DNA from: Terriglobia bacterium | GTDB taxonomy: Bacteria > Acidobacteriota > Terriglobia > 20CM-2-55-15 | Assembly (NCBI GenBank): GCA_965198225.1 | Contig: CBDAOY010000009.1 | Coordinates: 416,001-480,000, forward strand | Length of the DNA: 64,000 nucleotides | Reading direction: 5' to 3' | Shown here: piece by piece, positions 39,132 to 44,474 of the stretch | Position numbering within the stretch: position 1 is the first letter of the stretch | Layout: every line of letters begins with the position of its first letter | The notes under the pieces: generated by a model | What the model was told of the DNA's origin: nothing | Database searches by the model: none | What the model saw: only the letters and a program-made list of their open reading frames with translations | Made by a program: the position numbers and the translations under genes

Positions 39132-40753
39132 GGTTATGTTTCAGAGTTTCTGCAAAAAGGTCCTGAAATAGGAAAGGGCCAGGGTATCTCCGAAAAGTTG
39201 GTAACGAATCAACTTTGAAACGAAGGAGATGAACCGATGGCCCGACCTCAGATTAAGCGAAAGGGAGTGGATTGGAAAGAACTGTTAGGAGAGGAAAAGG
39301 ATTTGCTGAAAAGCGTCGTACAGGAGGTGGTTCAAGAGATTCTCGAGGCGGAGATGGACCAGGTCGTGGGCGCGGTCAAGAGTGAACGAACAGGGGGTCG
39401 CACCGGATATCGGAGTGGCTATTACGGACGGGACCTGGTCACACGGGTGGGCAAGCTGGAGTTGCGCGTGCCGCAGGACCGGGCCGGCCGGTTCAGTACG
39501 GAGGTGTTTGAACGCTACCAACGCAGCGAGAAAGCCTTGGTGGCCAGCTTGGCCGAGATGTACGTGCAGGGCGTGTCAACGCGCAAGGTGAAAGCCATCA
39601 CCGAAGAACTATGCGGACATTCGTTTTCGGCCAGCACGATCAGCCGGATTAATCAGACTCTGGACAAGGAGCTGAAAAAGTTTGCAACGCGACGATTGGA
39701 GGAAGAATACCCGTACCTAATTTTGGATGCGCGCTACGAGAAGGTGCGCGAAGACGGGGTCATCCGGAGCCGGGCGGTGCTGGTCGCGATCGGAATCAAC
39801 TGGGACGGCCGGCGCGGTGTGTTGGCGGTGGAGCTGGCGGGACGGGAAAGCACGACCAGTTGGCGGCAACTGCTGCTGAGTTTAAAACAACGCGGCCTGT
39901 GCGGGGTGGAGTTCGTGGTGACCGACGATCATCCGGGGTTGAAGAAAGCCATCGCGGAAGTCCTGACCGAAGCGATCTGGCAGCGCTGCTACGTGCACTT
40001 TCTCCGAAACGCATTGGATTATCTGCCGCGCAAAGGCGATGACGATTGCCTCCAGGAACTGCGTTGGCTCTACGATCGGCGGAACCTCCAGGAAGCGCGG
40101 CAGGACCTCGCGGCGTGGTTGAGCAAGTGGGGGCAGAAATATCCCAAACTCTGCGACTGGGTCGAAGACAACATCGACGAGACGCTGAGCTTCTACACGC
40201 TGCCGCTTCAGCATCACAAGCACATGAAATCCACCAATATGCTGGAACGGCTCAACGAAGAGATCAAGCGGCGAACGCGTGTGGTGCGGATATTCCCCAA
40301 CGCGGCCAGCTGTCTGCGTTTGATTCGGGCACTGACCACCGAGATGCACGAGAACTGGATCGAAGCGATCCGTTATTTGAACATGGATCTGTTGAAGGAA
40401 CACAAGAAGGACTGGCACCGTCAGACGCCTGCCGCGTGAACGCGTCAAAACGGACCGACCCAAGGATCGGCTCGGAAGCCGATCGTCGATTACAGCGCAT
40501 CCTGGAGCGAGGAATCTCTGTGGAAAACTTTCAAAGGGCGAAAGAAAGAGAACCAAAAAAGAAAGAAAGGCAGAGGCCTGATGGAAATGACGCCTCAGAG
40601 GAAATCCGCAACAAGACGCGGATTCCCTCTGAGGCTTGGAAAAGCTTCGCCAAGAACGTTCAGCTTTCCCACATTCCCACAGGCCCGACGGCGATCAACA
40701 CTCAAGAACTGACTTTTTCGGAAATACTTTTTGCAGAACTTGACGCACACAAC
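39132..40753 (+). mobile_element. Complete IS256-family insertion sequence
   Basis: Imperfect terminal IRs ending TTCTGCAAAA; target duplication TTGATTGTG at 39123-39131 and 40754-40762. Confidence 0.92.
39237..40439 (+). CDS. IS256 (mutator-type) DDE transposase
   Basis: VPQDRAG, GVSTRKV, LILDARYEK, WQRCYVHF, STNMLERLNEEIKRRT. Confidence 0.97.
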   Translation: MARPQIKRKGVDWKELLGEEKDLLKSVVQEVVQEILEAEMDQVVGAVKSERTGGRTGYRSGYYGRDLVTRVGKLELRVPQDRAGRFSTEVFERYQRSEKALVASLAEMYVQGVSTRKVKAITEELCGHSFSASTISRINQTLDKELKKFATRRLEEEYPYLILDARYEKVREDGVIRSRAVLVAIGINWDGRRGVLAVELAGRESTTSWRQLLLSLKQRGLCGVEFVVTDDHPGLKKAIAEVLTEAIWQRCYVHFLRNALDYLPRKGDDDCLQELRWLYDRRNLQEARQDLAAWLSKWGQKYPKLCDWVEDNIDETLSFYTLPLQHHKHMKSTNMLERLNEEIKRRTRVVRIFPNAASCLRLIRALTTEMHENWIEAIRYLNMDLLKEHKKDWHRQTPAA

Positions 40754-40855
40754 TTGATTGTGCTCGATCCCGACGGAGCTGGGTACCTTTCGGGGATGAC
40801 GACAGCCCGTGCGGACGAGGTGACTCCAGTACGAAACAATTGAATCTCTCGGACC

Positions 40856-40875
40856 GGCCCCAAGCCGGGCCTTTT
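40856..40875 (+). terminator. Terminator-like stem-loop at the IIC intron target
   Basis: GGCCC-CAAGCC-GGGCC-TTTT just before the intron 5' end. Confidence 0.55.
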
Positions 40876-41314
40876 CAGGTGCGCCGGGCATGGCACGCCA
40901 ACCGAAGGTAGGAAAGCCACCGTGATCGGACGGAAGGCGAACGCCAACAAGGCAAGGGCAGTCTCAGAGATGGGATGTCCGGAGGAAGCATGAGGCAGAA
41001 CTCGTGTACGTAGCGAACAGCGAACCGGCTAGATGGGTGCCCGGAGGGGGGCGAGCAGGCTTGAGAGAGCGAGCCCCGATATTCGATCGGAGTTACCGAA
41101 GGGAGCTGAAGCCGGACGGGATACGAGGAGGGGGCGTGTCTTACCCCGGGAAGCCCTACTGCTTCGATGTCGGGACCCACAGCGGGTGCGCCCGCCCAGG
41201 CGCTCAAAGGACATTGGGTTATCCAGTCCGCCGTGACCTGACGTTCGAAAACCGAGCCGCGAACGGCGATTCCGTAGCGGGCAGGGAGCAGAGGGTGGCA
41301 GATCCATGGATAGT

Positions 41315-42236
41315 GCGTGCCTGGCAGCACGCGTTTCCGGCGGGTTAAAGTCCCGCTCGGCCCGAGGCCACGGGTCGATATCCAACAAGTGGGGGTAATG
41401 CCTCACTGGCCGAAGTGTAGACAGGTAGTGCAGATGCCTAAACGGGCACGAAGGCGAAAGCCGGATACGGCCAAGGCAAAGCTGGAGCCAGCTACGGAAA
41501 CTTTGGAGGGCAGGGCGCCCACCGCGAGGTGGGGTCTGAAGGGCATGAGGAGAACCACCGGGTCGTAATCGACGGGAGCCATCCCGAGGATGAACCGGTC
41601 GGCCAAAGATGGGGAATGGTCGAGCCCGCACTATTGGGGCGAAGGCGCATTGGTTCCACCCCATCGCACCAAGGTGTGTGCGGGCGACACGGTGGAGAAG
41701 AGACGCGAGTGACCCAGGGAGGCCTGGTATCGTCCGAGCGGAAGGTAAGGTCGAGATGATGTGGCACCCGCAGACGAAAGGGCGGGCAACCGAGAAGACA
41801 AACATCGACCTAGAGCCCTGCGCGGTAGGTGCGGATATAAGCGAGAGCGAAATTCCGGCCGACGCGGTGTCAGGAATCGGATCGGGGAATAGTACTCAGG
41901 AACGAGACGGCAAACATAAGGTCTCGGATCGTTGCTTCGAGCAGCGGCGCTGGCGGGTCCAAAAGGCCCGTTGGAGGGGGAAGTCCCCGTACTCAGTCGT
42001 GAATGTGCGAGCGATGGGAAACGCGGAGATATCGTGGAATTGGATAGTTCCCTTAGCGAAAGACCCAAACGCGGTACGAACGAAGCCGCCACCTGCCGCC
42101 ACACAGCGAATTCCGAACGAGGAGCAACTGAGGAAAGCGGCTTGCGGGAAAACCGCACGAGCCGTTTGATTGAGCGGACGGTGGAAGGGCAACTGAGGAG
42201 ATTGAGCCCGACCAGCCCGACCACTTTCGACTCTAC
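41315..42236 (+). ncRNA. ORF-less group II (IIB-like) intron nested in the outer intron
   Basis: DI basal stem CCTGG..CACGCGTTT pairs with AGACGCGAGTG..CCAGG; 34-nt DV 42134-42167 (AGC triad, GAAA loop); DVI ending CGACTCTAC; 5' end at 41315 (alternative 41313). Confidence 0.8.
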
Positions 42237-42614
42237 ACTGAGGACTCAGGGCCGATGAAGCCTGGCAACAGTGCGGAGGATAAAACCCTGACGACCGGGA
42301 AACAAAGAGAGGAACGGGCGCCCTGGCAGCAGCCGGAGCAACTGAATCTCTGGGACAACCCGGACGGCCGGAGATCGCCAACCGGCGGTGGGAAGTCATG
42401 GACGAGAGGCGAGAGTGACACCGACAGGGAGTCGACTCAGTGGATGGAGCAAGGGGCCCAGAAAGCCATCGGGGGCGGCGAGTTCCACATGGGCGCCGAG
42501 GCGGAAAACCGCCGCGGTCATCAGCCGTCCGGGTCCGGCGACAACGCCAACCACCCCCGGCCATCCCTGGCGGAAGACAGTCACGGAGGAAGTGAACTGA
42601 AAGTTGTTGGAGTG

Positions 42615-43871
42615 ATGAAACGGGTCTACGACCGGAGGCGACTGGTTCAGGCGTGGCAGCAGGTACGGGCCAACGCCGGAGCCGCCGGGGTGGACAACAT
42701 GACGGTCGAAGCCTTCGGGGAAAGAGAGGATGAATTTCTCTCACTCATCCACGACAAGCTGAAAGCCGGGACATACCGTTTCAAGCCCGCAAAGAGGGTT
42801 CTGATCCCCAAGCCGGGCAGTTCGAAGAAGAGGAAGCTGGGTATTCCCGTCGTGATGGACCGTGTGGTCAGTCAGAGTCTCCATGCTGTGTTGACGGAAA
42901 TCTTTGAGCCGGACTTCAGCGGGTCCAACTTCGGGTTTCGGCGTGGTAAGAGCCAACACCAGGCCATTCGCCATGTGCGGGAAGCCGTGATGGAGGGCTA
43001 TGAGTGGTGTGCATCCCTCGACATCCAGAGCTTCTTCGATGAGATCCCCCACAACCTGATCCTCAAGCTCATTCGACAGAGAATCCGAGATGAGCGGCTC
43101 GTTACGTTGATCGTGCGGGTGCTGAAGGCAGGAGTTGCTGTGGATGGTGTTATCGAGAAGACGGATCAGGGATGTCCCCAAGGCTCCCCGGTCTCGCCGG
43201 TCCTGTCCAACATCGTGCTCAATGAGCTCGACCAGGAACTGGAACGGCGGGGACACCGGTTCAGCCGGTGGGCCGATGATTTCGTCATCCTGTTGCGAAC
43301 GGAGCGGGCGGCTCTACGGGTGATGGAAGGTATCACACGATTCCTCGAAGAGGAACTCGGACTGCGCGTCAACCGGGACAAGAGCCGCGTGGCCCCGATC
43401 AAGGATGTGGAGTTCTTAGGATTCCAGATCCTGCGGGGTCAGATTCGGGTGAGTACGCGGGCGCGGAAGCGCTTCGTGCAAGAGGTCCGATCCCGGACAC
43501 GGCGGAATAACGGGCTATCGATGCACCAGGTCATTGGCGAACTCAACGAATATCTTGAAGGATGGGTCGGGTATTACCGCATCCAGGAGTTCCGGAAGAT
43601 CTTCCAAGAGCTAGATGGATTCATCCGTAGTCGGCTCCGGTCCATGCAGTTGAAGAAGTGGAAGAAGCCGGCGAAGTTCCAGCGGATGATGATTCGCGCC
43701 GGCGCCCCGGTGTATTACGCCCGCCGAACCTGGGTGCGGATGAAGGCGTGGCAATCCGTCATGCGGCGGGAGGTCCGTTTCGTCCTGAGCCTGGAGTGGT
43801 TTCGGAGCCAGGGACTCGTCTTTCTCCACGACTTCGCGCAGCGGAATCTCAAACTGGAGTTTGCTCGCTGA
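42615..43871 (+). CDS. ltrA: Group II intron reverse transcriptase/maturase (class C, no endonuclease); frame open from 42255, true start uncertain
   Basis: AWQQVRANAGAAGVD, RKLGIPVVMDR, DIQSFFD, GCPQGSPVSP, RWADD, X domain GWVGYY. Confidence 0.93.
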   Translation: MKRVYDRRRLVQAWQQVRANAGAAGVDNMTVEAFGEREDEFLSLIHDKLKAGTYRFKPAKRVLIPKPGSSKKRKLGIPVVMDRVVSQSLHAVLTEIFEPDFSGSNFGFRRGKSQHQAIRHVREAVMEGYEWCASLDIQSFFDEIPHNLILKLIRQRIRDERLVTLIVRVLKAGVAVDGVIEKTDQGCPQGSPVSPVLSNIVLNELDQELERRGHRFSRWADDFVILLRTERAALRVMEGITRFLEEELGLRVNRDKSRVAPIKDVEFLGFQILRGQIRVSTRARKRFVQEVRSRTRRNNGLSMHQVIGELNEYLEGWVGYYRIQEFRKIFQELDGFIRSRLRSMQLKKWKKPAKFQRMMIRAGAPVYYARRTWVRMKAWQSVMRREVRFVLSLEWFRSQGLVFLHDFAQRNLKLEFAR

Positions 43872-44045
43872 TCGAAGAGCGGCTTACCTGGCCGGTACGA
43901 GCCGTTCTGTCCGGAGGGGGTGAGGGTCACTTCACCTCCTACCGGGATTTGGACCTGACCGCAGTACAATTCCGACACTCTCACAGCGCAATCGCCATGC
44001 GACCGAAGCGGTCCATGCGGCAGGTGGAGTCGTGAAAGATTACCG

Positions 44046-44474
44046 ATGAGGAACGTCAAGCAACTTTTGGACGTGAAGGGATCGACGGTGTGGTCGATCG
44101 AACCGGAGGCTTCCGTGTTCGAAGCCATCAAGCTGATGGCTGAGAAAGAAATCGGGGCCGTGTTGGTCGTGAAAGACCACCACCCCGTTGGCATGCTGTC
44201 GGAACGGGATTATGCCCGTAAGATCATCCTCGAAGGCAAGTCCTCGCGCGACACACCGGTTGCCGACATCATGTCGAGCCCCGTGATCTACGCGAAGCCC
44301 AAACAGACCATCAGGGAATGCATGGCGGTGATGACCGATCGACGCTGCCGCCACCTGCCGGTCCTTGACGGCGAACAACTTGTCGGGATGATAAGCATCA
44401 ACGATCTCGTGCGTGACATCATCGCCGACCAGCAGTTCCAGATCACGCAACTGGAGAGTTACATCAGCAGCTAG
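44046..44474 (+). CDS. CBS domain protein
   Basis: GMLSERDYARK, RHLPV, GMISINDLV. Confidence 0.92.
   Translation: MRNVKQLLDVKGSTVWSIEPEASVFEAIKLMAEKEIGAVLVVKDHHPVGMLSERDYARKIILEGKSSRDTPVADIMSSPVIYAKPKQTIRECMAVMTDRRCRHLPVLDGEQLVGMISINDLVRDIIADQQFQITQLESYISS

Follow-up and report, generated by a model that had tools for sequence, protein, structure and literature searches.

A group II intron inside another group II intron

The DNA described here (the window) is a stretch of 64,000 nucleotides (nt) from contig CBDAOY010000009.1 of a Terriglobia bacterium (assembly GCA_965198225.1, contig positions 416,001 to 480,000). At window positions 40879-43948 it holds a group II intron that is itself interrupted, at 41315-42236, by a second group II intron of 922 nt lacking an open reading frame (ORF); both, like the other intron and target features given below, lie on the + strand. 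The outer intron starts with GTGCG at 40879 and ends with ..GGGAT at 43948. Its 5′ segment (40879-41314) comprises domains I and II (DI, DII), the linker J2/3 and the 5′ strand of DIII as far as AUAGU, as indicated by a match to Rfam model RF02001 and by assembled contigs of the public run X4 that continue from this segment into position 42237 onward. The 3′ segment (42237-43948) holds the rest of DIII, DIV with a reverse transcriptase (RT) ORF, DV and DVI, as seen from folding and from the X4 contig. The inner element is multicopy, with precise-insertion junctions. It was confirmed that the nesting is genuine, the window containing a group II twintron whose inner boundaries lie exactly at 41315-42236. 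It is also highly probable that the inner intron is an ORF-less member of a lineage that retrohomes into the DIII loop of group II introns of several families, and into itself, the host being in this case IIC-like.

A preliminary description of the locus had already placed the inner boundaries at these positions. They are borne out by a joint of 41314 to 42237, which skips 922 nt with the ends GC..AC and occurs in two contigs of X4 (255 nt per side), in run X1 (30 nt) and in X16 (28 nt); X15 and X16 are RNA libraries available as assembled contigs, possibly containing DNA. An uninterrupted outer intron, which the same description had proposed to look for as an empty allele, was found as a 1842-nt contig (X4 record 24) with five differences from the window and located behind a different hairpin. 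Whether this form stems from a DNA allele that is empty or from spliced RNA, it fixes the junction. The outer intron occurs twice in the genome, interrupted at an identical position by two distinct inner variants, of which one is ORF-less (loop ACTATT) and the other has the ORF (loop ACTATG). For another host family (g), seven uninterrupted copies were found whose 120-nt flanks are 100% identical to those of the filled copy and directly adjacent to each other; the insertion is therefore precise and without target duplication. The two 5′ ends and two DV/DVI sets noticed earlier are indeed present, and both sets fold (z = -4.99 for the outer DV plus DVI, -4.47 for the inner).

Folding and covariation in an alignment of seven relatives defined the 3′ domains of the inner element. 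DV (42135-42167) has the AGC triad, a 2-nt bulge and a 5-nt loop, and DVI (42172-42233) carries its bulged A at position 42230, at a distance of 6 nt from the 3′ end; six of the 24 predicted pairs are compensatory, four of them among the 13 pairs of DV and two in DVI. The DVI loop of the window copy (~42190) is 18 nt longer than that of its siblings (922 versus 904 nt); X16 and X4 contigs lack these additional letters, and the terminal loop of DVI is hypervariable from copy to copy. The 5′ end reads GCGTG in all 20 copies of the source genome, not GUGYG, and the 3′ end CTCTAC. Among the metagenome relatives described below, the 5′ end is GTGCG or GTGTG in 57 of 64, with C at position 2 in the other seven (L113, L125, L140, L141, L152, L158 and L165). 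The 5′ exon ends in GU, so that the junction GU|GCG imitates GUGCG two bases upstream; a start two bases earlier was rejected, since excision from there would not give the observed empty sites. The Rfam models were run on both introns, as had been suggested. The outer intron gave a clear match (RF02001, group-II-D1D4-3, at 40961-41139; 67 bits, gathering score 32), but the inner one remained below gathering (24.5 bits with RF02001, 15 bits with RF02003). Relatives of the inner intron reach 32.4-35.1 bits on the D1-D4 models. A scan of 40500-44400 at E<=10 with RF00029 detected neither the inner nor the outer DV; the model reaches gathering on DV-DVI of a plasmid relative (L215, 40.9 bits).

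The inner element derives, by deletion of the ORF, from a lineage of group II introns that encode an RT. No RT similarity was found inside the window copy by tblastn. At its DIV point (42107-42112), from which the RT ORF has been deleted, siblings hold ~1.23 kb, and a contig of run X1 has a loose end at 42109. Two such siblings exist in the source genome (C6:343788-345941 and C5:501714-503866), the former within the second copy of the outer intron. Their extra sequence encodes an intact 405-amino-acid (aa) RT, P0002, which lacks an endonuclease (En) domain (RVT_1 plus GIIM; TIGR04416 at 390 bits); a third ORF-containing copy is frameshifted. This RT is 39% identical to that of the outer intron and, when compared with RTs of solved structure (for both introns, representatives in the PDB only), scored 222 and 217 bits with IIC RTs, 157 with the TeI4h type and 136 with LtrA. 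The comparison does not place the inner intron in a named Zimmerly class; its RT is nearest to IIC RTs among the structures compared.

The outer element is a group IIC-like intron with an En-less RT, inserted after a terminator-like hairpin. Its RT/maturase of 419 aa is encoded at 42612-43871, in a frame that is open back to 42255, and contains RVT_1 and GIIM (TIGR04416 at 373 bits); no HNH or other endonuclease domain was found in the domain search. The same structural comparison gave 308 (GsI-IIC) and 252 bits for IIC RTs, 107 for the TeI4h type and 125 for LtrA. DV lies at 43876-43908 and DVI at 43910-43946, with a bulged A at 43941 that was read by eye. The target structure is a GC-rich hairpin (40851-40871; fold -11.9 kcal/mol) followed by TTTTCAG with its T-run, and the intron starts 7 nt 3′ of the hairpin; such a hairpin is directly upstream of the outer intron in three of three contexts (two genomic copies and one loose end in X4). 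In contigs of X15, X16 and X4 a variant of the DIV leader was seen in which 56 nt (window 42301-42358) are replaced by a single G. The RTs P0001 (outer, window ~43270) and P0002 (locus L023) both have WADD in place of YADD, which is how the catalytic RT motif is named in a passage of PMC12584367.

Immediately upstream of the twintron lies an IS256/Mutator-family transposase gene (39237-40439; PF00872, 2.6e-147), and downstream a CBS-domain gene (44046-44474). The interval between the transposase gene and the twintron contains a long hairpin (40585-40642), near-perfect and with ~21 bp in its stem. Matches to microRNA (miRNA) and long non-coding RNA models at 40545-40667 were discarded as sub-gathering (33.6 bits versus 70 for the miRNA model) and as reflecting this single long hairpin.

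The insertion site and its recognition

The preliminary description had put the target motif at the start of DIII; it is instead the 5′ strand of the DIII internal loop. The outer DIII is composed of a basal stem (41304-41309 with 42261-42265), a distal hairpin (42238-42249) and GAAG (42257-42260). The intron-binding site 1 (IBS1) of the inner intron, GATAGT at 41309-41314, is the 5′ strand of the internal loop that follows the basal stem, and the insertion point, AUAGU|A, lies between U and A. In the RF01998 consensus, DIII runs from a basal helix through CAUAGUA (in upper case) and the distal hairpin to GAAG, opposite CAUAGUA, and back into the basal helix. The match of this model to an empty family-g copy scores 41.6 bits, and folds of the rejoined flanks of the hosts H1, f and g gave the same internal-loop layout. 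According to a passage of PMC4476101 that cites Robart et al. 2014, DIII supplies an adenosine pair to a stack reinforcing DV.

The loop ACUAUU at 41630-41635, in a GCCC/GGGC stem ahead of GAAGGC, had been proposed to be exon-binding site 1 (EBS1) and to pair with GATAGT. In the source genome this loop reads ACTATT in 14 copies and ACTATG in six. Thirteen of the 14 ACTATT copies are at a TAGT-type site, 11 of these with A or G at position -6, and the ACTATG copies with a junction have C at -6 in four of five cases. An EBS1 ending in G was likewise accompanied by C at -6 in 50 of 60 metagenome cases. In genome G032, the corresponding loop of a 77%-identical relative reads CCAAAG, and the sequence preceding that intron is CTTTGG. 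The covariation with IBS1 position -6 and this retargeted relative identify the loop as EBS1, in agreement with the proposal. ACUAUU pairs perfectly with the element's own DIII loop, AAUAGU (AAUAGU|AC, 41888-41895), and through a G-U with H1 and the outer intron. This pattern fits the self-nesting described below and the saturation of H1, for which no empty copy was seen among six upstream and eight downstream flank matches.

No conserved IBS2 was seen: the hexamers at -12 to -7 differ in nine of nine contexts in the source genome, where the intron is 96-100% constant, and this region is also variable across the 64 metagenome flanks. The lack of a conserved IBS2, an RT nearest to IIC and a weak match to the Rfam model of the outer intron leave the label 'IIB-like' that had been given to the inner intron without support. 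The source genome contains 1672 RTAGTA sites. In host family f, three uninvaded ORF-less introns (C6:296603, C8:79172 and C5:569943 of the source genome, G000) read CATACT at the target, and the sole invaded relative reads CATAGT; to judge by these letters, CATACT may be an escape mutation at IBS1 position -2.

Distribution of the lineage

A BLAST search with the 922-nt inner element against its own genome (6.4 Mb in nine contigs) returned 33 pieces, which correspond to ~20 copies, including ~13 near-full ones at 90-100% identity, several nested in one another. Of 20 5′ junctions, 18 end in TAGT, one in TAAT and one in ..GATGGC (C5:3834), the last adjoining a contig start. The 3′ exon has A as its first base in 19 of 19 cases (AC in 17, AG in two). 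The preliminary description had called for such a tabulation of flanks, and TAGT|A was found to recur in at least nine contexts: the outer intron (two copies), the hosts H1, H1′, d, e, f, g and h, and the element's own position 579|580. Just upstream and on the same strand, Rfam D1-D4 models matched at gathering in H1, e and f (RF02005), in g (RF02001) and in H1′ and d (RF01999). Eight of the nine contexts are thus group II introns by Rfam or the element itself; for context h (C8:158737) there was no Rfam match and its identity as an intron is unverified. None of the nine is outside a DIII-type site and none is intergenic. Position 579|580 corresponds to window 41893|41894, within the element's own DIII loop, and insertion there was seen as four nested junctions ending in ..GGGGAATAGT| in the source genome and one in genome G020. 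Partial nested forms in the source genome are consistent with recombination.

In the source genome, ~30 places of similarity to group II RTs, of several families, were detected by tblastn; a passage of PMC8919778 states that genomes rarely exceed 10. Head-to-tail introns were also observed, H1′ starting ~50 nt past the DV/DVI of another intron at C4:150206-150458.

Outside the source genome, copies 96-100% identical were found in G020, which is assigned to another genus of the same family, one of them nested. Contigs C24 and C9 of G020 show the same nested arrangement as the source genome. Their near-identity suggests recent transfer, or shared or mis-binned contigs. An exact 42-mer matched solely metagenome-assembled genomes of Terriglobia in the genome contig collection, and an exact 24-mer of the inner 5′ end gave no match in metagenome contigs. 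The distribution is patchy, as expected for a mobile element. A related genome, G170, holds ~8 ORF-containing copies with EBS1 ACTATG; for one of these the host is an outer-like intron, interrupted at the same base of DIII. Direct tandem copies, in which the 3′ end of one abuts the 5′ end of the next, were noticed at L039 (778-874, in G032) and L132.

For a wider sample, contigs of the JGI metagenomes were scanned for a 29-nt motif around EBS1; at least 120 contigs matched and 80 were taken. A 5′ junction was present in 64 contigs and ended in TAGT in 53. C[AG]G[AC] was found at -16 to -13 in 45 of the 64 flanks and G[TG]C at -18 to -16 in 52, patterns that together with TAGT represent a J2/3-plus-DIII context. 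The exceptions include L132, which stands in tandem behind another copy, and L156. Both ends could be defined at 22 loci, and the 3′ exon began with A in all of them; 19 of these introns are 1.9-2.2 kb long with an ORF, and three are ORF-less. When 20 of the 64 junction loci were searched with Rfam, host D1-D4 were recognized in 13 of them, on the same strand and at a distance of 90-400 nt upstream (RF02005 in eight, RF02001 in four, RF02003 in one). The RTs of the lineage are 53-80% identical to P0002, and a second RT, that of the host, at 27-40%, lies just downstream on the same strand.

The plasmid database PLSDB yielded six records from cultured strains, with RTs 54-58% identical to P0002. 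The 5′ junction is kept in four of them, and all four show the DIII context (Paraburkholderia hospita, Bradyrhizobium barranii, Microvirga sp. VF16 and Alicyclobacillus fastidiosus); the host was matched by Rfam in three, and one locus (L214, on the mHSR1 plasmid of P. hospita) is a complete twintron. A plasmid of Bradyrhizobium sp. 62B carries two tandem ltrA genes. Insertions in the source genome and the metagenomes are all in the sense orientation of the host. The junctions from genome, metagenomes and plasmids agree with the earlier proposal that the element is specialised to home into the DIII motif. The idea of an invasion across structural classes also stands as far as the hosts are concerned, since they span at least four Rfam D1-D4 families (RF02001, RF02005, RF01999 and RF02003), but not in the class that it assigned to the inner intron.

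Interpretation and comparison with known systems

The EBS1 of the lineage (ACUAUG, or ACUAUU in the window) pairs with (C/R)RUAGU, and the 3′ exon always starts with A. In the mechanism favoured here, the target of EBS1 being the conserved DIII strand AUAGUA, the lineage would retrohome into group II introns by reverse splicing. Integration would take place into DNA and, by analogy with other En-less introns, would be primed at replication forks. ORF-less copies would be spliced and mobilised in trans by the RT of a sibling. The need for a maturase supplied in trans or borrowed from the host had been pointed out before; because the inner copy is ORF-less and two intact ORF-containing siblings are present in the genome, supply in trans by the cognate sibling RT is more likely than borrowing from the host. 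With its DIII split, the outer ribozyme could presumably neither fold nor splice until the inner intron had been removed, so that splicing would be ordered. A passage of PMC4424553 notes that the inner intron of a twintron often must leave before the outer RNA folds.

Several observations weigh against this interpretation. The inner element is below the Rfam gathering score in the window copy and its 5′ end is GCGUG. The filled junction 41314|41315 is not bridged with 31 nt on both sides among the contig pieces listed, as expected for a repeat in short-read contigs, and the filled state therefore rests on the assembly and on the parallel copies. The joint in the RNA library X16 extends over 28 nt on one side and lies on a variant with the 56-nt indel shared with X4; it may stem from an empty allele and was not counted as evidence of splicing, nor were gaps in coverage. 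Some of the copies in the source genome are recombinants or duplicates and not separate homing events. The exact motif was present in two of 401 sampled genomes of the phylum. The motif used for the metagenome scan includes EBS1, and thus shows where ACUAUK introns live, not how frequent this EBS1 is; further, the 64 metagenome flanks form 28 clusters, 20 of which have RTAGT. As regards the specificity foreseen in the preliminary description, the sites in the source genome, the metagenomes and the plasmids largely conform to DIII, but most of those in G170 do not: seven of the eight copies there are outside recognizable introns (no Rfam intron match) and follow CGTAGT, TGTAGT, CATAGC or CATCGT, and at two there is a long sense-strand open frame across the junction, one of them flgI (PF02119, 6e-85). 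Targeting would therefore need little beyond ~6 nt, and the excess of DIII sites could partly reflect which insertions are tolerated.

These G170 copies, with the same EBS1, are what an opportunistic short-target intron would leave behind, that is, one recognizing ~6 nt plus A and inserting anywhere, whose copies in DIII persist as harmless and whose genic copies are purged. The abundance of RTAGTA sites in the source genome and the lack of a conserved IBS2 point in the same direction. Such an intron is nevertheless an unlikely explanation, as it would not be expected to show DIII-type sites in nine of nine contexts with none intergenic, nor the same loop at 53 of 64 metagenome and four of four plasmid junctions. 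EBS1 is, moreover, retained across RTs just 53-58% identical, and the local change of its last G to U matches the A or G at -6 of the targets at hand (the element itself, H1 and the outer intron). Invasion at the RNA level, in which a ribonucleoprotein would reverse-splice into the DIII loop of the host RNA and the composite would reach DNA through host retrohoming or recombination of complementary DNA, would suit a target that is single-stranded in the folded host RNA and insertions that are all in the host sense orientation. A host ribozyme split in DIII should not, however, be capable of reverse splicing, and flgI and the other genic insertions fit ordinary DNA targeting; this route is considered very improbable. 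An assembly artefact, with a multicopy repeat misplaced inside the outer intron, is more improbable still. The element is indeed a repeat of ~20 copies at whose ends short-read contigs break, but each of the two outer-intron copies holds a different inner variant, inserted at one and the same base, an outer-like intron of G170 contains an inner copy, and the same architecture is found in complete plasmid records of cultured strains.

Homing of the lineage into the DIII loop of group II introns remains the best explanation. A bolder version, offered tentatively and as somewhat doubtful, would make this old, cross-phylum, RT-encoding lineage an obligate hyperparasite for which the near-invariant DIII loop is a universal homing site, with the splicing and mobility of the host gated by the guest, which would act as a natural brake or regulator. 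If true, it would provide a living example of the origin of nested and fragmented ribozymes. The target is a catalytic-effector loop kept by almost every group II ribozyme, and a single EBS1 therefore opens hosts of several structural families. Hosts would escape solely by mutating a conserved motif, which makes for a testable arms race between retroelements. The arrangement would also be a natural case of one ribozyme whose activity is gated by excision of another, and it would account for the 'ltrA ltrA' genes in tandem for which annotation pipelines offer no interpretation. Since complete plasmid examples exist in cultured soil bacteria (P. hospita, B. barranii), bench tests are feasible.

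To our knowledge, the intron-into-intron homing described previously was limited to the dispensable DIV or the ORF of close relatives. A 2003 paper by Dai and Zimmerly on Methanosarcina acetivorans reportedly deals, according to its title, with homing into related intron ORFs. No report of a DIII-homing lineage was found in a literature search whose scope did not extend to the full texts of Dai and Zimmerly 2003 and of Michel et al. 2007, nor to supplements; the figures of twintron sites in PMC4476101 and PMC2882425 could bear on this question. In the part of PMC12584367 that deals with specialised bacterial lineages, those given are IIC, at terminators, and a IIB1 family, at start and stop codons, with none targeting introns. 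Group IIC introns, as portrayed in sections of PMC4424553 and PMC12584367, share with the outer element insertion downstream of a hairpin, a short IBS1 and an En-less RT. The inner lineage has the short target in common with IIC introns but is not found behind hairpins.

The published systems each share some features with the present one. In Thermosynechococcus elongatus, ORF-less TeI3 (F3) is found in TeI4 (F1), with mobilisation in trans by a sibling RT, a conserved site within an intron, and proliferation (PMC2882425). There, however, the target is a site in DIV flanked by the first and the second ATG of the host ORF, and the hosts are closely related introns of one family (PMC2882425), whereas the DIII core loop is common to unrelated host families and the lineage described here spans phyla. 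The nested arrays of M. acetivorans likewise feature repeated homing, nesting several deep, pruning by recombination and a 'perpetual homing site' (PMC4424553), but not, as here, a target in the DIII internal loop of hosts from at least four Rfam D1-D4 families. The Tery_4732 twintron of Trichodesmium resembles that of the window in having its inner intron in a ribozyme domain of the host, in that case DI, and its sequential splicing has been demonstrated in vivo (PMC4649490); it differs in being, in the account given there, a single locus without a lineage that has a conserved intron-borne target (PMC4649490). The hypermobile mitochondrial intron cox1i1149g2 of a lycophyte invades its own copies, as the inner element does, but in the dispensable DIV and not in the conserved DIII loop (PMC7049729), and intron-into-intron homing in Porphyridium is also into DIV (PMC4476101). 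Intron-into-intron homing is thus already known, and the novelty of the present case is its target, the DIII loop.

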